Below are positions 1 through 11,013 of a stretch of 64,000 nucleotides of DNA, one piece after another. The translations under genes and the position numbers were made by a program. The notes under the pieces are model-generated. The model made no database searches. It was not told the DNA's origin and worked only from the letters and a program-made list of their open reading frames with translations. Each line of letters begins with the position of its first letter. Position 1 is the first letter of the stretch. The DNA is from Candidatus Limnocylindria bacterium (GTDB lineage Bacteria; Chloroflexota; Limnocylindria; P2-11E): NCBI GenBank assembly GCA_038227105.1, contig JBBRQB010000002.1, forward strand, positions 7,983 to 71,982, given 5' to 3'.

Positions 1-967
1 CCTTCGCCGCTGCCGAGAGGCGTGAGCCCTGGATGACCACCATGCCGATCGCGCCGTAATCGAAGCGGCCCTCGAAGCCGATCCGGCCGAGCGTCGCGAA
101 CCCCACGGCGACGCCGATGCCGAGCCCGAGGTCGTGGCCGCGCTTGCGCCAGCCGGCCTCGAGCTCCGCGAAGCGCTCCTGCATGGCGACCGCCATTCGC
201 GTCGCCTGGAGCTGCGGCTCCGGGATCTCGACCGGGTCGTTGAAGAACACCATGATCCCGTCGCCGGCGAAGTGCTCGACAGTGCCCTCGTGACGGAAGA
301 TGACCTCACCCATGGCCGCCTGGTACGCGCGGAGCACCCCGAGCGCCTCCTCCGGCTCCGCGGTCTCGGAGAAGGCCGTGAACCCGCGCAGGTCCGCGAA
401 CACGACCGTGATCTCGCGGCGGTGGCCGTCCAGCAGTGCGTCGCCGCCGGTGGACATGACGAGCTCTGCGATCTGCGGCGACAGGAAACGGCGTAGCCGG
501 CCGAGGCGGCCGAGCTCGTCCACCTGCTCCTGCACACGTTGCTCGAGCGTGCGGTTCCACTCCGCGAGCTCGACCTTCTGGCGCTCGCTCTCGTCGTGGT
601 ACGTCTTCACCCGGAGCAGTGACTTCACGCGCGCGAGGAGCTCGGGTTGGTCGAAGGGCTTCGCGATGAAGTCGTCGGCGCCGGCTTCGATGGCTTTCAC
701 CTTCTCCGGGAGACCGCTCGCCGTGACCATCACGACCGGCAGGAAGCTGGTCAGCGGATCAGCACGCAGCCGGCGGCACACCTCGTAGCCGTCGATGCCG
801 GGAAGCATGATGTCGAGCAGCACGAGGTCCGGCTTCTCGGTCAGCGTCTTGAGCAGCGCCTCCTCACCGGTCAGCGCGGTCACGACCTGGTAGCCGTTCG
901 GGACGAGCACGGCCTCGAGCAGCCGCAGGTTCTGCGGGATGTCGTCGACGGCGAGGATCTTGGTCAC
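1..967 (-). CDS. Response-regulator receiver fused to class III adenylate/guanylate cyclase (5' part; 3' end beyond window start)
   Basis: Own minus-strand translation from GTG at 967: VTKILAVDDIPQNLRLLEAVL...LVLLDIMLPGIDGYEVCRRL (REC) then ...REITVVFADLRGFTAFSE...FAGDGIMVFFNDP (class III cyclase motifs). No stop before position 1. GTG overlaps the TGA of the upstream CheY gene (GTGA). Absent from ORF track because truncated. Confidence 0.75.
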   Translation of the reverse strand, partial: MTKILAVDDIPQNLRLLEAVLVPNGYQVVTALTGEEALLKTLTEKPDLVLLDIMLPGIDGYEVCRRLRADPLTSFLPVVMVTASGLPEKVKAIEAGADDFIAKPFDQPELLARVKSLLRVKTYHDESERQKVELAEWNRTLEQRVQEQVDELGRLGRLRRFLSPQIAELVMSTGGDALLDGHRREITVVFADLRGFTAFSETAEPEEALGVLRAYQAAMGEVIFRHEGTVEHFAGDGIMVFFNDPVEIPEPQLQATRMAVAMQERFAELEAGWRKRGHDLGLGIGVAVGFATLGRIGFEGRFDYGAIGMVVIQGSRLSAAAK

Positions 968-1341: not shown

Positions 1342-4300
1342 TTAGGCTCCCTTCACCACGGGCAGCGTGACGGTGAACGTACTGCCTTTGCCCGAGGTGC
1401 TCTCGACCGTGATGGTGCCACCATGCAGCTCGACCATCCGCTTGGAGAGGGCCAGCCCGAGGCCGGTGCCCTCACGAGACTTTTCGGTCTGGTGTCCGGC
1501 CTGTGTGAACTCCTCGAAGATCCGCTCTTGGTCCTCGACGGCGATGCCGATCCCGGTGTCGTGGACGGCGAGCTGGATGTGGCCGTTCTGCTGGTCGGCG
1601 CGCAGCCGAACCGTGCCCCCGTCCGGCGTGAACTTCACGGCGTTCGCCAAGAGGTTCACCACGACCTGCTTCACCTTGCGCTCGTCGGCGACGACCTCAT
1701 CGAGCGCCGGCGCCATGTCGAGCTCGAGCTTGATCCCGTGACTCTGCGCCCGCTCTCGCACGAGGGTGACCGCGTTGTTCAACGCGGCCACGAGCGAGAA
1801 CGGCGCGAGCTCCAGCTCCATGCGACCGGCCTCGATCTTGGAGAGGTCGAGGATGTCGTTGATGAGCGTCAGCAGGTGTTTGCCGGATGAACGGATGTCC
1901 TCGAGGTAATCGGCCTGCTGATCGTTCAGCTCGCCGAACATCCGCTGCAACAGCACATCGGAGAAGCCGATGACCGCGTTCAGCGGCGTGCGGAGCTCGT
2001 GTGACATGTTGGCGAGGAACTCGCTCTTGTGCTGGTTCGCCACCTCGAGCTGCGCCGATTTCTCCTGGATCTCGTTGAACAGGCGGACGTTCTCGATGGC
2101 GATGGCCGCCTGACGAGCGAAGGATTCCACGAGGTCGATCTCGCGGTCGGTGAACGGTCGCACCTCGATGCGGACCAACACCAGGACGCCGAGCACGTCG
2201 TCACCGCGCAAGAGCGGCACGCCGATGCCGGTACGCGCACCGATCGCGACCATGCCGCGCGAATCCGCGACAGTCTCATCGGCGGTGACGTCGTGGATGT
2301 GGATCGTCCGTCGCTCGCGGAACGCCCGCCCCAGGACCGACGCGGCGTAGGTGATTTCCGCGACCGGGCCCCCCGATGTGGTGGCGTCCTCCGGTCGCCT
2401 CGACGCGACCAATTTGCCATTGCCGTCACGATCGGTCTGCCGGATCCAGCCGTACTCGGCCCGGCAGAGCGCGAGCGACTTGTCGAGCACCATCTCGAAC
2501 ACCGGCTTCAGGTCGAACGCGCTCTGGCTCATTGCCGCGAGGAGCTCCGCGGTCGCGGTCTGGCGCTCGAGCGCCTCCTGCGTCTCCCTGAAGAGTCTGA
2601 CGTTCTCCATGGCGATCGCGGCCTGTGTCGCGAAGGACTCAACGAGCTCGATGTCGCGCGTGGAGAAGGGATCTACCTCGCGCCGGCCGAGCTGGATCAC
2701 GCCGATGGGCTCACCGTCCTTCAGGATCGGTATCGCCAGCCGTGTACGGACGAGTCCCGCTTGCGCGCCCGACCGCAGCTGCTCGTCGAGTAGGACATCG
2801 GGTATGTGCACGGCCCTCCGGGTCACGACCGCTCGTTCCAGGGTGCTGGTCGCGACCGCCGGATCGAGCGTGCGTCGCACGAGGTGTGTCGCCGCATCGC
2901 GTGGCCAGTCTCCGGATGACGCGTCATAGAACCATTCGCCGCCGTCGCGCTGCCAGATGACCGCATGGTCGGCGCGGCATAGTGCGAGCGATGATTCGGC
3001 GATCGTCTGTAGCACCGGCCCGATATCGAACGCCGACCGGCTGATGACATCCAGCACGCTGCTCGTCGCGGTCTGGCGCTCAAGCGCCTCCTGCGTCTCC
3101 TTGAACAGCCGCGTGTTCGCGAGCGCGATGACCGCTTGATCCGCGAAGGTCTGCACGAGCTCGATCTGCCGCTCAGAGAACCCGCGGGGCTCGCGGCGGC
3201 GCAGGACGATCGCGCCCAGCGCCCGGCCGTCGCGCATCAACGGCGCGCTCAGGATGGCCCGCTGGCCATCCCCTCGGAGCGATATCGCCTTGCTGAGCGG
3301 ATATTCGTCGGTCGCGCGAACGTCCGCTATATGGATCGTGCGGCGCTCGACGATGGCGCGACCCGTGACGGTCAGCGAATCGATCGGCGTGCTGGTGGCC
3401 ATGTCGATCGGACCAGCATGGGCGGACGCGACTGCCTGGTCCCCTTGGACGATCATCACGGTGACGTCCTCAGCGCCTGCGAACCGCGCCGCGCTCACCG
3501 CGATCGCATCAAGGACCGGCTGGATATCGGTGGGTGATGCCGAAATGACCTTGAGAATGTCGCCGATGGCCATCTGACGCTCGAGTGCCTCACCGGTCTC
3601 GTTGAACAGCCGGGCGTTCTCGATCGCGATCACCGCCTGGTCAGCGAAGGTCTCCACGAGGGCGATCTGCTCGGCGGAGAAGGAATTCGCGCTCGTTCGC
3701 CAGAGGGCGATGACGCCGATCGATCGGCCTCCCGTGATCAACGGCACCGAAAGCAGGACCTTGAAGCCGCCGAGCCGTTTGGCGTCGGCGTAGGTGTACG
3801 TCGGGTCGGCGTCGACATCGGGGATGTGGACCGTGCGTCGCTCGGTGAACGCGCGACCCGTCGCTGAACCGAGGTTGTCGGACCTGATCGGGTTCTCGCG
3901 CTGCCATTCGCGCATGACATCCGCCCGGGGACCGAACGCCGCACTCATCGCGAGGAGCTCGCCATCAGCCCGGTAGAGGAAGCCGTTCTCCGCCTCGCTG
4001 AGGCGGGTCGCATGCGAGATGACGGTGCTCAGGAGGCCCTCGAGATCGAGGGCGGAACCGCTGATCGCCTTGAGGATCTCGCTTGTCGCGGTCTGACGTT
4101 GCAGCGACTCCTTCGTTTCGTTGAAGAGCCGGACGTTATCGAGCGCGATGACCGCTTGTGACGCGAATGTCTCGACCAGCTCCACCTCCTGCTCGCTGAA
4201 TGCACCCGGCCTGATGCGCCGCAGCTGGATCGCGCCAACGGCGCGCCCATCCTTGAGGAGTGGCGCAGCGAGGAAGCCGCGATACCCATGCTCGGCCGCG

Positions 4301-6780
4301 TACGCCTTCGCCTCGCCGAATTCGGCGTCGTCGAGGTCCTCCATGTCAGGCACGTTGTACAGGCGTCCTTCGCGGATGACGCGTCCGGTCACGAATCGAT
4401 CTGACAGCGGGAACACCTGCTTGGGTACGGCGAGCTTGCCATTGGTCGCAACGAGATCCACGTCGCCGTCCGCGCGAAGGAGGGCGACCGCGGCATCATC
4501 CGCGTTGCAGAAACGCCCGGCGCTCGCCGCGATCGTGTCGAGGACCGGTTGCACGTCGGTTGGTGAGCTCGAGATCACCTGCAGGATGTCGCTGATCGCC
4601 GTCTGTCGCTCGAGCGCCCCCTTCGTCTCGTTGAAGAGGCGCACATTTTCCAGGGCGATGACGGCCTGGTCGGCGAACGCGCGAAGCAGGTCCGCGTCTC
4701 GCTCACTGAATGCACCCGCGGTCGATCGCCGCAGCGCGATGCCGCCGATCGCGGTGCCTCCACGCAACAAGGGCGTGGCGATCGTGGCGCGGAAGCCAAA
4801 GCGACGCGACGTCTCTCGTAGCGCGGGGAATTCCGGGTCATCGAGGGTGTTCGCTGAGTGGATCGTCCGGCGCTCGAGAACGGCACGGCCCATCACGCTT
4901 GCCTGATCGGCCGGCCATAGCTCGTCCGGTCCCCGCAGCGGGATCGGCCCGTGATGCGCGCGCGTGCTGAACTGACCGTCGGCGTAGAGCGCGAGGAGCG
5001 CGTCCTCGCAGCCGCAGAACCGGACCGCATTGCGCACGATCGCGTCGAGTACCGGTTGCTGCTCGGTCGGCGAGCTCGCGATGACCTGCAGGATCTCGCC
5101 GAGCGCCGTCTGGCGCTCCAGCGACTCCCTTGTTTCGTTGAAGAGCCGCACGTTCTCGATGGCGATGACCGCCTGATCGGCGAAGGTCTCCAGTAGCGCG
5201 ATCTCCTTTTGCGAGAATGGGCGTGCGACCTCCCGGCGCGCCACGATGACCCCTATCAGCTGACCGTCGCGCGCGAGCGGCACCCCGAGGAGGGTGCTGT
5301 GCGGCGGCGCCTGTCCGGTCGCCCGCCGCTGGCCGCTGTATTCACCGTCCGCCGCCGTATCCGGGATCTGCACGCTTCGTCGTTCGAGAAGCACCCGGCC
5401 GGTCAGTGTCGCGCGCGTTGGCGCGATCGGATGCTCCTGCCAGTACGCGATGAAGTCCTCCCGGTCGGGGATCGCGCCGGCGTCCGCCAATAGGTGCGCA
5501 GCGCCGCCGTCGATGCCGAGGACGTAGGCGCTGTCGGCGCCGCAGAGCTGAACAGCGTTGTGCACGACCGCGTCGAGGACCGGAGCAACGTCCTGCACCG
5601 AGCCGCTGATCACCTTCAACAGGTCGCTCGTCGCCGTCTGCCGCTCGAGCGCTTCCTTCGTCTCGTTGAACAGGCGGACGTTCTCCATCGCGATGACGGC
5701 CTGGTCAGCGAAGGTCTCGACGAGCTTCACTTCGCTCTCACTGAACGGCTGCACCCGGTTGCGGCGTAGCAGGAAGGCGCCGATCACCACGTCGTCGCGG
5801 CGCAGCGGTACGACGAGCAGCGTGCGGGTCTCGGCCATCTCCTTCGGGATCCTGCCCAATGCGATATCCGTGGCGGACGTGGCCGCGTAGTACTCGTGCA
5901 GGCGGGTATCGGCGATATGGACGGAGCGCTTCGTCTTCAGCATCTGACCCATCCCGCTTTTCGGCGAGATCGGCGTCAAGGCGGGATCGAGCTGCTCCAC
6001 GGTCGAGCTCGCGACATTGCTGCGCATGCGACCGTCGATGCGGCTCACGGTCGCGTTGTCGGCTCCACAGATCCGCGCCGCACGCCCGGCGAGCATGCGG
6101 AGGATCGCGTCCAGATCGAACGCGGACCGGCTGATCGCCCGAAGCACATCCGCGGTCGCGGACTGCTGGTCGAGCGCCTCCCTCGTTTCTTTGAGGAGCC
6201 GCGCGTTCGCCATCGCGACCGCGAGCTGATCGGCGAACGTCTCGACGAGCGCGATCGTCCCCGGTTCGAAGCCACCCGGATCGTTGCGCGAGGTCAGGAT
6301 CACCCCGATCGTCTCGCCCCCGTGACGGACCGGCACGGCGAGCCGCGTCCGACGCCGTTCGGCGTCATGTAGCTTCGGCTCGGCGAGGATCGTGTCCGCG
6401 TAGTGGAACCGTTGACCGCTGAGGGCGGCGCGACCAAAGATCGTGCCGGGATCCGCTGTCACGCGGTCGCCGGGCTTCCCCGGAGCCTGCCCGTACGTCG
6501 CGGCAAGGACGTAGCCGTCCACGTCGCGCCGGATGAATCCGCCGTTGTCGGAGCCCGCGAGGCGGACCACAGCTCTCACGACCATATCCGCGACCGTGTC
6601 GATCTCCACCGTGGGATCGGCGAGGGCCCGCATCACGGCGCTCACGGCGTCCAGCTGCTTTCGCGCGTCGTCGCGCACCGCCGCCGCCGGCTTTGTCGAC
6701 GCCGTCAGCTTCTTGAGGGGCGCGGCCTTCTGTGCGGCGACCTTCGTGACCGCTCGCTTCCTGCCCGTCCCCGACCTCAC
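1342..6780 (-). CDS. Cytoplasmic multi-GAF sensor histidine kinase (~9 tandem GAF domains + HisKA + HATPase_c)
   Basis: ORF track 1812 aa. The linker motif [23 protein letters not shown] recurs 8 times between ~165-aa GAF units. C-terminus has [17 protein letters not shown] (H-box) and [18 protein letters not shown] (G2 box). No TM segments. GTG start at 6780 is 1 bp from the divergent neighbour's ATG, so the true start may be the GTG at 6678. Confidence 0.85.
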
Positions 6781-6781
6781 G

Positions 6782-8965
6782 ATGTGCGCAAGTATCGGCG
6801 CGCCGCAATACCCTTGCGCCGCGGGAGGGTGCTTGGATATCTGGCAGATCCTGCGCGACCGGCTCGACTACGCGTCGTTCGTCCCGACCCCGCTTCCCGA
6901 CGTGGAACGCGCCGATCTCCGGCGTCGCGACGGCTCGCCCTATTCGGTGCTGAAGAACCAGCGTGGGGACAAGGGCGCGGGCCGGTATCTGCGGCTCGAT
7001 GTGGCCGATGTCCAGCTCTACGAGCTGATGGATGGACAGCGTTCGATCCAGGACATCCTCATGGCGCACGTCGAGCGCAACGGCGTCTTCGCGCTGGATC
7101 GCCTGGCGCGCCTCACGGCGCAGCTCAGGGCGAACGGCTTCTTCGGCGAGGAGCCGCCGATGCTGTACGAGAAGCTGTTCGCGCGGCGCGCGATGCGCGA
7201 TCCCATCGCGCGCGCGTCGACCTTCCTCAAGCGGCTCGTCGTGTGGGACATCGCCCGGTGGTCGAACGCCGACCGCCTCGTGGACGCGGTGTACCGGCTC
7301 GGTGGCCGGCTCGCGTTCACGCGCGTCGGTGCCGTCGCGCTCGTAGCCTTCGGTCTGTACGGGCTCTGGACCTGGTTCGGTGAGGTGCGCTCACCGCGCC
7401 ATCAGCTCGCGACGATCGACGGCTCCTACGTACTGGGCATCCTCGCGCTCGTCCTCCTGCAGGTGGCGTCGATCTCGGTGCATGAGGCCGGTCACGCCCT
7501 CGCGATCCGGCACTTCGGGAGGCGCGTCCGACGCTTCGGCGTCGCGATGTATTACCTCTTCCCGTGCTTTTACGTCGACTCGACGGACATGGTCCTCGGC
7601 ACACGCGCGCAGCGGATCGTCGTGTCCCTCGCCGGGCCGTTCGCGGGCCTGACCGTCGCGTCCGCTTGCGCGCTCGTGGCGGCGGGGCAACCCGACACGC
7701 TCACCGGAAGCCTCATGTTCAAGGCCGCGAGCCTGTTCGTCTTCCAGTTCATCTTCAATCTCCTGCCGATCCTGGAGCTCGACGGCTACCACGTGCTCAC
7801 CGACGCGCTCGACGCGCCGTTCCTGCGCCAGCGGGCGCTCGGGTTCGTGCGCGGCGCGGCATTCGTGAAGCTGCGTCGTCGCGCCACATGGTCACGTGAG
7901 GAGGTCGGCCTCGCGATCTTCGGCATCACCGCGATCGTCACGTCCCTCGCGACGCTGGTGCTGTCGATCCAGCTCTGGCGTTCACGCATCGGTGTCGCAT
8001 CTCAAGAGCTCCTCGCCATCGGACCGGCGGGGATCCTCGCGCTCGCGCTGCTGGTCCTCGTCTTCGTCGGCCCGCTCGCGGTCGCGGTCATCGCGCGGGT
8101 GACCGGCACCGTGCGCACGACCGTCAACCTCGCACGCTCCCGCAGCCGCGCTGTGACCCAGCGCGAGCAGCAGGAGCGCGTCGCGATGCTCGCTCGCGTG
8201 CGATTCCTCGCGGGACTGCCAGGCCCGGCGCTCGTTGCGCTCGCGTCGCAGCTGGACATCGAGCACGCCGATGCCGGACGGACCGTGATCACCGCGGGCA
8301 GCACCGGCGACCGCTTCTACCTCGTGCGATCGGGCTCGCTGCAGGCCGTGGCCGTCGACGGCACGGTGCTCGGGACGATCTCGGCCGGAGAGGGCTTCGG
8401 CGAGCTCGCGCTGCTCGACGGAACGCCGCGGACCGCGACGGTCCAGGCCCTCGAGGACTGCGAGCTGTGGTCGCTCGACCGGCCGCACTTCCAGCGGTGG
8501 ATCCGTGACCGGTACGAGATCGCCGCGCGCATCCGCGCCGACATCGGCGCTCGGACCGCCCTCGCGGCCCTGCCGTTCTTCCGCGATCTGGAGGGCCGCG
8601 AGCTCGACGCCACTGCCGCGCGCCTGCAGGCCCGGCGGTACGAAGACGGTGACGTCGTGATCCAGGCGGGAGAAAGTGGCGGCGGCTATTACCTGATCCG
8701 CGAGGGCACGGCCGACGTGGCCCTCCCGGACGGCCGGCACGTGCGCACCCTCGGCCCCGGCGACGGCTTCGGGGAGCTCGCGCTCATCTTCGGGACGCCG
8801 CGCACGGCGACGGTCACGGCGAAGGGCCCACTGGTCGTCGGAGTGCTCGGACGGTCTGATTTCGCGGCGCTTGTAACTGCGTCAGGCGAAACGATGGGTG
8901 AATTCCGCCGCAGGACGGGCCATTATGTCGGGGCTGGCCTTGGCGGGGCCGTTGGGGGAGCGTAG
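6782..8965 (+). CDS. M50/site-2-type intramembrane metalloprotease with N-terminal PqqD/RRE-like domain and two C-terminal cyclic-nucleotide-binding domains
   Basis: ORF track frame 6533..8965. [13 protein letters not shown] (HExxH) in a hydrophobic segment plus [12 protein letters not shown] (M50 NxxPxxxxDG motif). N-terminal [53 protein letters not shown] resembles PqqD/RRE. Two cNMP-binding units ([10 protein letters not shown]...[21 protein letters not shown] and [10 protein letters not shown]...[21 protein letters not shown]). Start uncertain: ATG 6782, TTG 6833 (after GGGAGGG) or ATG 7028. Confidence 0.8.
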
Positions 8966-9181
8966 GTGGACTGTTGGACCTGTGAGCGCCCGGCACTCGC
9001 GGCATGCCGGTTCTGTGGCCGCGGCGCCTGCCGGGAGCACGCGCGGAGCCATCCCTTCGTCCTCGACGTCTTGCGTGGCACCCGGCATCAGGGGCTGCGG
9101 GCCCTCGTCGTGGAGGACGCCGTCCATTGCGGCGTCTGCCGGCCCCGGAGCGAGCCGGTCGACATGCCCGAGCTGGAATAG
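8966..9181 (+). CDS. Small Cys-rich zinc-ribbon protein (DUF2180-like pattern)
   Basis: ORF track 71 aa: MDCWTCERPALAACRFCGRGACREHA...VHCGVCRP (CxxC x10 CxxC x4 C ... CxxC). GTG start immediately after the protease TAG (8963-8965), consistent with translational coupling. Confidence 0.55.
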   Translation: MDCWTCERPALAACRFCGRGACREHARSHPFVLDVLRGTRHQGLRALVVEDAVHCGVCRPRSEPVDMPELE

Positions 9182-10341: not shown

Positions 10342-11013
10342 CTAGTAGCGGATGTCGCCCTGCAGGACGGCGCGGTCCTTCAGGGCGAGGTTGCGGCGGC
10401 CGATCTTGATCGCGCCGCGCTTCTCGAGGTCGGCGAGGACGCGGTTCACCGACACGCGGGTCGCTCCGACGAAGCCGGCGAGATCCTCCTGGGTCATGTC
10501 GATCTGATCCGTGCCCGAGGCTTCCGCGAGATCCAGCAGGCACTTCGCGACCCTCCCCGGGAGGTCCAGGAACACGAGGTCTTCCACGTGGCCGGTGCTC
10601 CGGCGGACGGTCTTCACCAGGAGCGCCAGCATCCGGCGCATCGCGTCAGGGTTCCGCTCGAGCGTCCCGATGAATTCCTGCCGCGCGAGTGCCAGCGTGT
10701 GGGTCTCGGTGATCGCCGTCACCGTGGCGGATCGCGGGCCGTCGTCGAACAGCGCGAGCTCGCCGAAGACGTCACCGCCGCGCTCGAGCGCGACCACGAC
10801 CTCGCGGCCCTGCTCGTCCGGCACGCTGACCTTCACGGTGCCCGAGGTGATCAGGAAGACCTGCCCGGCCGGGTCGTCGTTGTGGAAGATGACCTCGTCC
10901 CGTGCGAAGTGCCGCGGGCGCATCTTGCCGGCCAAGGCCAGCCGGTCCGCTGGGCTGAGACAGGCGAAGAGCGGGCTTTCACCCAGGTAGTCGGCGACCG
11001 CAGCGGTATCCAC
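10342..11013 (-). CDS. CRP/FNR family transcriptional regulator (cNMP-binding + HTH)
   Basis: ORF track 223 aa: FHNDDPAGQVFLITSGTVKV...GDVFGELALFDDGPRSATVTAITE (cNMP-binding) and C-terminal EDLAGFVGATRVSVNRVLADLEKRG (HTH). GTG start. Confidence 0.9.
   Translation of the reverse strand: MDTAAVADYLGESPLFACLSPADRLALAGKMRPRHFARDEVIFHNDDPAGQVFLITSGTVKVSVPDEQGREVVVALERGGDVFGELALFDDGPRSATVTAITETHTLALARQEFIGTLERNPDAMRRMLALLVKTVRRSTGHVEDLVFLDLPGRVAKCLLDLAEASGTDQIDMTQEDLAGFVGATRVSVNRVLADLEKRGAIKIGRRNLALKDRAVLQGDIRY

Follow-up and report, generated by a model that had tools for sequence, protein, structure and literature searches.

A poly-GAF histidine kinase and its units

The DNA analysed here is a stretch of 64,000 nucleotides from a Candidatus Limnocylindria bacterium (contig JBBRQB010000002.1; we call this whole stretch the window), and our main focus is a gene near its left end that encodes a poly-GAF sensor histidine kinase. 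Table 1 lists the parts of this gene together with its neighbours. Pfam resolves nine separate GAF stretches in the protein, with scores of 485 bits against a cut-off of 28.6 for GAF_2 (PF13185; E=1.6e-147) and 484 bits against 22.4 for GAF (PF01590; E=4.2e-147). They are followed by one HisKA domain (aa 1585-1652, 81 bits) and one HATPase_c domain (aa 1699-1808, 111 bits). Judged by its H-box (SHELRTP, with His1594 as the phospho-acceptor) and its ATPase boxes (N, G1, F and G2 all intact, GTGLGL present), the protein is a HisKA-type sensor histidine kinase, and autophosphorylation is predicted. The open reading frame (ORF) runs without interruption. Its start codon agrees with that of an identical public protein (P0001, from NCBI-derived data, on a 106-kb contig), and the N-terminus, 'MRSG..', is similar to the 'MRAG..' of the ortholog P0017.

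An earlier reading of this DNA from its letters alone, which we refer to as the sequence-only reading, had proposed about nine consecutive GAF domains, a HisKA/HATPase core behind them and no membrane anchor. Domain parsing with Pfam puts the GAF count at exactly nine, and the core is confirmed by Pfam and by the intact motif boxes. A membrane anchor was not found in the kinase by a plain hydropathy test, rather than a dedicated transmembrane predictor: the top 19-residue Kyte-Doolittle window reaches 1.76, and this most hydrophobic window is a GAF beta-strand segment containing Gly and Arg, so that no segment is fit for a transmembrane helix.

The nine units share 24-50% pairwise identity, with unit 1 as the outlier. 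In the DNA, a repeat search recovers 7-8 diverged copies of 163-207 nt at a spacing of 501-528 nt and 60-73% identity, while Tandem Repeats Finder reported no array with the GAF-unit period in the kinase gene because the copies are too diverged. No other ORF of the window encodes this GAF type. We compared the units with 2654 units from 262 poly-GAF proteins (hereafter the family units) and sorted them into lettered types, which are clusters at 60% identity or more. Cysteines are few and regularly placed. There are seven in 1812 aa (aa 238, 413, 589, 591, 758, 1268 and 1439), all at unit offset 44 (six units) or 46 (unit 4), at the junction of helix 2 and strand 1; a Cys occupies that position in 66% of the family units. 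Units 1, 6 and 7 are free of Cys.

Table 1. Features of the kinase gene and of the surrounding genes, in window coordinates.
Feature	Coordinates	Strand	Remarks
Poly-GAF sensor histidine kinase gene	1342..6780	minus	1812 aa; GTG start 6778-6780, stop codon 1342-1344
GAF unit 1, aa 25-194, type B	6199..6708	minus	most divergent paralog, 24-31% identical to the other units
GAF unit 2, aa 195-369, type J	5674..6198	minus	unit typing
GAF unit 3, aa 370-545	5146..5673	minus	no counterpart at 60% identity or more in syntenic orthologs
GAF unit 4, aa 546-714, type F	4639..5145	minus	65-77% identical to ortholog units at other array positions
GAF unit 5, aa 715-884, type C	4129..4638	minus	unit typing
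GAF unit 6, aa 885-1057, type D	3610..4128	minus	no Cys; AlphaFold2 model
GAF unit 7, aa 1058-1224, type A	3109..3609	minus	AlphaFold2 model; no Cys
GAF unit 8, aa 1225-1395	2596..3108	minus	weakly conserved among orthologs
GAF unit 9, aa 1396-1566, type E	2083..2595	minus	closing unit in 6 of 7 typed arrays, 73-84% identical
Kinase core, aa 1567-1812	1345..2082	minus	last connector, HisKA (1825-2028) and HATPase_c (1357-1686); His1594 at 1999-2001
Stand-alone receiver, 125 aa	964..1341	minus	ATG directly abuts the kinase stop codon
Receiver + class III nucleotide cyclase, truncated by the window edge	1..967	minus	GTG 965-967; 4-nt overlap with the receiver stop
M50-type intramembrane metalloprotease with two cNMP-binding domains, 710 aa	6833..8965	plus	TTG start set by ortholog alignment
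71-aa Cys-rich small protein	8966..9181	plus	CxxC...CxxC...C...CxxC; begins immediately behind the M50 stop codon
NHLP-clan (Os1348 family) peptide-precursor-like protein, ~324 aa	9304..10278	plus	63 bits against a cut-off of 40
Crp/Fnr-family regulator, cNMP-binding domain + HTH_Crp_2	10342..11013	minus	domain matches
cNMP, cyclic nucleotide monophosphate.

Helices that join the units

The units are joined by a repeated connector motif. Its copies start at aa 195, 370, 546, 715, 885, 1058, 1225 and 1396, at a spacing of 167-176 aa, in agreement with the eight inter-GAF linkers described in the sequence-only reading. A ninth copy at aa 1567 continues into the H-box without a helix breaker, as there is no Gly or Pro in the sequence. 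An AlphaFold2 model of units 6-7 plus the next helix (41-row alignment; predicted local distance difference test, pLDDT, 89.8) contains two GAF folds joined by a continuous 46-residue helix (model residues 152-197), and the next connector (319-364) is built likewise. Each unit is thereby predicted to share one continuous helix of ~46 residues with the next, its own C-terminal helix running on into the N-terminal helix of its neighbour. In a second, low-confidence model, of unit 9 and the kinase core (7-sequence alignment; pLDDT 66.7), one 71-residue helix (150-220) spans both the connector and the H-box.

The top fold matches of the model of units 6-7 are all GAF structures, which assigns the units to the GAF fold. 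The closest solved folds are the tandem GAFs of CyaB2, PDE2A, PDE5A and PDE6 and the GAF-PHY region of phytochromes, at 12-18% identity (1ykd 1.7e-18; 3ibj 6.8e-17; also 3lfv). Heme sensing of the DevS type was also considered, given a profile match to DevS GAF-A (2.6e-10), and was set aside; by eye, no conserved His aligns with the 'YHPPMRT' segment of DevS.

Among the family units, the near-invariant positions of the consensus fall mostly in the two terminal helices, and those conserved in at least 95% are Q158, A162, N165, F155, A14 and L19. The consensus also includes GRA and G.Rt.LaVPLLReG..IGvI.l.R. as motifs. When orthologous units are compared, the helices are 64-90% identical and the cores 49-60%, with the exception of type D. 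The core of this type (unit 6 in the window) is 79% identical among orthologs, and in no other type does the conservation of the core equal that of the helices and of the kinase domain. Between different types, the cores are 29% identical. Because orthologous cores (49-79%) are about twice as conserved as this, the identity of a unit is under selection. By these alignments, the connectors are the most constrained element of the array, and among the units the foremost candidate for a dedicated sensor is unit 6.

Arrays of different length in otherwise similar loci

We counted and typed the units in positional orthologs of the kinase (Table 2); the ortholog in locus L002 is cut by a contig end and so has no GAF count. 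Between 6 and 15 units are present, and the window kinase has nine.

Table 2. GAF units in the window kinase and its positional orthologs, by type, from first to last. A dot marks a unit with no counterpart at the 60% threshold.
Protein	Units	Array
Window kinase	9	B J. F C D A. E
P0017	9	B C.. D A G K E
P0002	15	B.. H.. G C C. F. A K E
L001	6	.. G D F.
P0003	12	B H. I I C A. D A. E
P0010	8	B J I. D F A E
P0027	8	B. H C D G A E

The ends of the array are fixed, with B first and E last, in six of the seven arrays, the end units of L001 falling below the 60% threshold; type B opens the array in all orthologs with a complete N-terminus. Internal types recur at 60-88% identity, in differing numbers and orders. 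Type F, for example, precedes D in the window and follows it in P0010 and L001, and units 8 and 9 of P0002, at 79% identity, exemplify tandem duplication. Counterparts of unit 2 at 60% identity or more were found in just 2 of the 262 sampled poly-GAF proteins. These differences arise while the flanking proteins stay 74-96% identical. Internal units have been duplicated, lost and apparently reordered between close relatives.

Exact DNA repeats of 14-25 bp occur inside the kinase gene, confined to DNA that codes for connectors, and none exceeds 25 bp. Such repeats would allow units to be exchanged in frame; they are consistent with this idea and do not prove it.

The genes around the kinase

Two genes follow the kinase on its strand. 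The sequence-only reading had the kinase directly preceding a receiver-cyclase. The receiver-cyclase does lie downstream, with a stand-alone receiver coming first, and the two downstream receivers of that reading are both there, one on its own and one fused to the cyclase, as a tightly packed cassette conserved in all examined loci that reach this far downstream. The stand-alone receiver is kept behind the kinase in L001, L002 and L004-L013, and the full set of kinase, receiver and receiver-cyclase in L001, L002, L004-L007 and L009-L013. Full-length orthologs of the receiver-cyclase measure 366-371 aa.

On the other side of the kinase lies the gene for an M50-type protease with two cNMP-binding domains (M50-cNMP below), conserved beside the kinase operon in seven loci (L001, L005-L007, L009, L010 and L012). 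The kinase GTG (6780) and the M50 TTG (6833) are divergent and 52 bp apart (6781-6832), with GGGAGG preceding the TTG; the corresponding spacers of orthologous loci range from 46 to 250 bp. The longest M50 ORF, which begins at 6533 and overlaps the kinase start, probably does not reflect the real gene start. The protein shows weak similarity, below cut-off, to maturation proteases of daptides and epipeptides, which are ribosomally synthesized and post-translationally modified peptides.

The next gene encodes a 71-aa Cys-rich protein. It is called in L005, L006, L007, L009 and L012 and, at 76% identity in the distant L012, is the best conserved small gene of the set; searches of Pfam and PADLOC gave no match for it. 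It is followed by an NHLP-like gene whose product has a leader-like domain and then four near-identical 'SAPQGDAYRAVNDPD..' repeats ('APQGDAYR..DPD'). Its longest ORF, from 9004, is probably over-extended. Orthologs of this protein are 226-363 aa long and have very different C-terminal parts. A Crp regulator on the opposite strand is conserved in L005, L006, L009, L010 and L012.

Seven positional orthologs, in metagenome-assembled genomes (MAGs) of Candidatus Limnocylindria, share the locus. It reads luciferase-like monooxygenase, Crp regulator, NHLP/Frankia_peptide-like gene, 71-aa gene and M50-cNMP, and then, divergent from the last, poly-GAF kinase, receiver, receiver-cyclase and DinB. This divergent order is kept in six loci (L001, L005-L007, L009 and L010). 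In the five loci compared with the window, the kinase core is 78-89% identical, the receiver-cyclase 82-93% and the other locus proteins 74-96%. L012, which is more distant and has 13 GAFs, carries the set re-ordered and largely co-directional (kinase, receiver, receiver-cyclase, M50-cNMP, 71-aa and NHLP-like genes, with Crp opposite). Here identity to the window proteins is 61-76% for the kinase core, M50-cNMP, Crp, the 71-aa protein and both receiver proteins, and just 36% for the NHLP-like protein. Because the set was retained through this rearrangement, we regard L012 as good evidence for functional coupling of these genes.

Farther afield, another lineage has a 14-GAF hybrid kinase with a receiver and a receiver-cyclase behind it, and a 16-GAF betaproteobacterial kinase (L008, MAG GCA_016195915.1) has a receiver alone in this place. 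A second cassette lies 4 kb upstream of the latter (L008, 618-5254) and consists of a PAS hybrid kinase, receiver, receiver-cyclase and globin-like gene. Because this cassette comes with a PAS kinase, the receiver/receiver-cyclase pair looks like a portable output module for different sensor kinases. In L010 (14313-17357), a 1014-aa protein with a cyclase domain and AAA_16 (STAND-type) stands after the receiver-cyclase; it does not occur in the other loci.

We also considered whether the locus could be a Pycsar anti-phage system and rejected this. The PADLOC matches are generic, with 68 bits for PycC compared to 124 bits for CyaB, and of the M50 protein only the cyclic nucleotide-binding (CNB) part matches PycTIR; the effector of such a system would lie next to the cyclase and have its CNB domain fused to a TIR or transmembrane killing domain. 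In addition, the cyclase is under two-component control, and the locus is stably syntenic with housekeeping-type neighbours.

The cyclase and the proteins that may read its product

The locus encodes three CNB domains, two on the M50 protein and one on Crp, which all carry 'FGELAL....PR(T/S)AT', a stretch that we take to be the canonical phosphate-binding cassette; in both M50 domains it reads 'FGELAL....PRTATV'. For the cyclase, we aligned residues with P. aeruginosa CyaB, Synechocystis Cya2 and Spirulina CyaC as references and compared the window with L001, L002, L005, L006 and L008-L013. The two Asp residues that bind metal are retained, as is the catalytic Arg. At the Lys/Glu specificity position there is a His ('LEHFAGDG'), which does not vary among the Limnocylindria orthologs and gives way to Arg in the betaproteobacterial copy; the Asp/Thr position holds Gly ('FDYGAIG'), a residue shared with the guanylate cyclase Cya2. 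Ile replaces the transition-state Asn in the window and in most orthologs ('VVIQGSRLS'); Asn is found in L001 and L008 ('VNLA(S/A)RL'). Since these specificity and catalytic residues are non-canonical, cyclic AMP (cAMP), on which the sequence-only reading had centred a possible feedback loop, should not be assumed to be the product.

A large family without names

To place the kinase among its relatives, we scanned 1.84 billion protein representatives with a HMMER profile of the GAF unit. At E<=1e-3 the scan gave 150,423 matches, of which 18,556 reach E<=1e-30; the best 150 of these 18,556 have 6-17 units per protein and reach 3673 aa in length. A further search, by word index, gave 7640 proteins at E<=1e-10. 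One of them is identical and the next best are 52-58% identical, and the top 120 of these matches contain 6-16 units of this GAF type. The sequence-only reading had treated the array as notably long. Because the best 150 relatives carry 6-17 units, nine GAFs are mid-range and not exceptional within this very large unnamed family of poly-GAF kinases.

The source names of the relatives are solely "GAF domain-containing protein" or "hypothetical protein". Their named taxa include Chloroflexota, Limnocylindrales, Betaproteobacteria/Burkholderiales and Methylomirabilota, and the nearest genome loci belong to Chloroflexota (Candidatus Limnocylindria) MAGs. NCBIfam gave sub-threshold equivalog matches alone for the kinase core and both receivers. 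Literature searches on multi-GAF or poly-GAF kinases, on Limnocylindria signalling and on NHLP with cNMP and M50 returned just papers on cyanobacteriochromes with 5-7 GAFs or unrelated work.

A possible relay from GAF array to cyclic nucleotide

The best explanation of these observations, and one that we hold to be fairly probable, is that the protein is a cytoplasmic poly-GAF kinase that relays through its helices to the receivers and the cyclase, whose output is read by the neighbouring cNMP proteins. By likeness to other HisKA kinases and to PDE-type tandem GAFs, the kinase would be a parallel dimer in the shape of a long rod. A change in at least one GAF, whether caused by a ligand or by thiol chemistry at the conserved Cys, would travel along the helices and set the autophosphorylation of His1594, from which the phosphoryl group would pass to both receivers. 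The stand-alone receiver could then act as a competitor, a sink or an allosteric partner, while the receiver-cyclase would make a cyclic nucleotide. This nucleotide would be read by the neighbouring M50 protease and Crp regulator, not by the GAFs, and may control the processing or the expression of the peptide-precursor-like gene. Not every unit has to be a true sensor; unit 6 is foremost among the candidates, and the others may be exchangeable inputs or spacers.

The sequence-only reading had the nucleotide act on the kinase itself. It proposed a feedback loop in which one or more GAFs bind cAMP or cyclic GMP from the downstream receiver-cyclase, as in CyaB1/CyaB2 and PDE2/5. The locus is indeed cNMP-themed throughout, and cNMP-binding tandem GAFs (CyaB2, 1ykd; Lcd1, 5w10; PDE10A, PDE2A, PDE5 and PDE6) come out as the nearest solved relatives both in sequence profile and in fold. 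However, the likeness to CyaB2 and PDE GAFs is at fold level only, and GAFs that do not bind cNMP, such as that of DevS, score nearly as well (2.6e-10). The NKFDE motif, which marks cNMP-binding GAFs (PMC11977230), was found in none of the nine units, and the family consensus lacks it too. Its N is Arg in nine out of nine, the K is variable and the F is kept in all. From unit 1 to unit 9 the D position reads T,E,E,D,E,Q,Q,D,E (Asp in two) and the E position I,V,I,A,V,I,I,I,I; across the family units, the same positions are R(88%)-x-F(92%)-Q/E-I/V. Dedicated CNB domains are moreover already encoded next door. A forward path from kinase through receivers, cyclase and cNMP to the protease and Crp is the more economical reading, and with the motif negative in every unit we think feedback through the GAFs improbable.

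A different question is how much of the array senses anything. It could be mostly a structural rod, in which one or a few units (type D and the fixed ends, for example) sense and the rest are ligand-free spacers for length, stiffness or oligomerisation, much like the poly-HAMP arrays of fungal group III kinases. We take this possibility seriously while doubting it: connector helices that are the best conserved part both family-wide and in most ortholog groups, a unit number that runs from 6 to 15 with the remaining system unchanged, and a type D that is alone in having a core as conserved as the kinase domain would all be expected of a rod, whereas the twofold higher identity of orthologous over different-type cores and the persistence of specific types in many proteins (28 of the 262 sampled have type A, and 17 have type D) would not. 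Were the array instead to sense through its Cys, by oxidation, nitrosylation, metal binding or adduct formation, the shared offset of all seven and the frequency of Cys at this position in the family would make sense. Yet three units have none, the best conserved unit 6 included, a single Cys per unit cannot form a cluster alone, and this GAF subfamily offers no experimental precedent, so that thiol or redox sensing by the array also seems improbable to us. A bilin-binding photoreceptor of the cyanobacteriochrome type is far less probable again. Its multi-GAF architecture is similar, and there are weak profile matches to cyanobacteriochrome and phytochrome GAFs (E 1e-8 to 1e-3) beside the fold matches to phytochrome GAF-PHY, but the canonical bilin-attachment Cys lies much deeper in the GAF domain. 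The Cys-containing units here have only the helix-2/strand-1 Cys (judged without a residue alignment to cyanobacteriochromes), and the relatives are non-cyanobacterial (Chloroflexota, Betaproteobacteria, Methylomirabilota). We give just as little credence to an assembly artefact or a decaying gene, in which the repeat number would stem from mis-assembly of a MAG or the ORF would be non-functional. The sequences do come from MAGs, and repeats can collapse or expand in assembly; however, units that share just 60-73% DNA identity, with exact repeats no longer than 25 bp, do not challenge short-read assembly. The ORF is uninterrupted with all kinase motifs intact, and independent assemblies contain full-length orthologs, one of which (P0002) is identical in two datasets.

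Several points weigh against the cytoplasmic relay that we favour and against the remodelling of its array. The family has no member with a known ligand and no close solved structure, the best PDB sequence match being CyaB2 at 70 bits. Cores are less conserved than connectors in most types and the unit number varies 2.5-fold, which fits spacers as well as sensors. For the integration of several small-molecule signals, which the sequence-only reading had suggested for such arrays, the evidence is mixed: because connectors outconserve cores in most types and orthologs carry 6-15 units, many units look dispensable or exchangeable. We infer both dimerisation and the passage of a signal along nine units, and the phosphotransfer partners are assigned by gene adjacency alone. 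Helix continuity from the last GAF into the kinase depends on a model of low confidence (pLDDT <50 over residues 182-218) and on the absence of Gly and Pro, and a heptad analysis of the connector consensus found no consistent coiled-coil register. The window cyclase lacks Lys, Asp/Thr and Asn at the canonical positions, which leaves in doubt what it makes and even whether it is active. Finally, the apparent reordering of units could stem from differential loss in a longer ancestral array.

All domains of this system are familiar, and the poly-GAF class itself is undescribed: unit-profile matches run to tens of thousands and proteins with 6-17 GAFs to hundreds, none of them named. Orthologs that carry 6-15 GAFs beside partners that are 74-96% identical offer a natural experiment on how signals pass through long sensor arrays and how sensor repertoires evolve. 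It is tempting to speculate that poly-GAF kinases are combinatorial sensors, whose internal GAFs behave as exchangeable cassettes, with duplication, deletion and in-frame transfer all taking place at an invariant connector helix. We consider this rather unlikely; if true, close relatives would be rewiring the inputs of one output circuit. That circuit would be unusual, with a two-component-controlled cyclase making a nucleotide that gates an M50 protease with two cNMP-binding domains, and an NHLP-type precursor adjoining. A cyclic-nucleotide-gated intramembrane protease would be unusual in itself, if it is one. The link to this protease and to the precursor suggests a route from a cytoplasmic signal to peptide processing in soil Chloroflexota. 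The points of interest are therefore the conserved circuit and the remodelling of the array; beyond the domain level, the mechanism is one that we infer.

Likeness to known systems

The tandem GAFs of Anabaena CyaB2 and of mammalian PDE2A, PDE5A and PDE6 share with this kinase the GAF fold and a single long helix that joins two GAFs, and the top solved match of the GAF unit by sequence profile is 1ykd (CyaB2, 2.1e-18). Those modules have two GAFs and a cyclase or phosphodiesterase output, whereas the kinase has nine GAFs, no NKFDE motif and 12-18% identity to them. The strongly conserved motif of its connector is also its own and not a feature of PDE linkers. Multi-GAF cyanobacteriochromes with 5-7 GAFs, phototaxis receptors for example, likewise have consecutive GAF sensors that feed an output. 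They differ from the present family in their bilin-Cys pattern and their cyanobacterial hosts, and the present family has up to 17 units and belongs to a different GAF subfamily.

Fungal group III hybrid kinases (Nik1/Os-1) are soluble and have long tandem poly-HAMP arrays that are linked by helices and vary in repeat number between species. From this description alone they resemble the poly-GAF kinases, although the module there is HAMP rather than GAF and the proteins are eukaryotic hybrid kinases. The connector can also be compared with the signalling helix (S-helix), a coiled coil of ~40 residues with a central 'ERT' (Anantharaman et al. 2006). It is similar without being a clear match: it reads 'ALERQTAT' or 'ALEQQTAT' instead and shows no consistent heptad register, and inter-GAF linkers have been treated as distinct from the S-helix (PMC1592074).

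On the output side, the best solved matches to the cyclase domain are Pseudomonas aeruginosa CyaB (3r5g, 4.6e-35) and Synechocystis Cya2 (2w01, 4.7e-31). Compared to these, the window protein keeps the metal-binding Asp pair and the Arg, with His at the specificity position, Gly as in Cya2, and Ile for Asn. The wiring as a whole is most readily set beside Caulobacter DivJ/PleC, DivK and PleD, where one kinase is likewise encoded beside a stand-alone receiver and a second receiver that is fused to an output of nucleotide-cyclase type. PleD is the best match for the receiver of the cyclase protein (PDB 1.2e-44; NCBIfam PleD model 161 bits), and the kinase core scores 238 bits against the NCBIfam DivJ model, below its cut-off. 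Because these NCBIfam scores lie far below the equivalog cut-offs, the likeness is one of wiring and not of membership, and the output here is a class III cyclase where the Caulobacter system has GGDEF.

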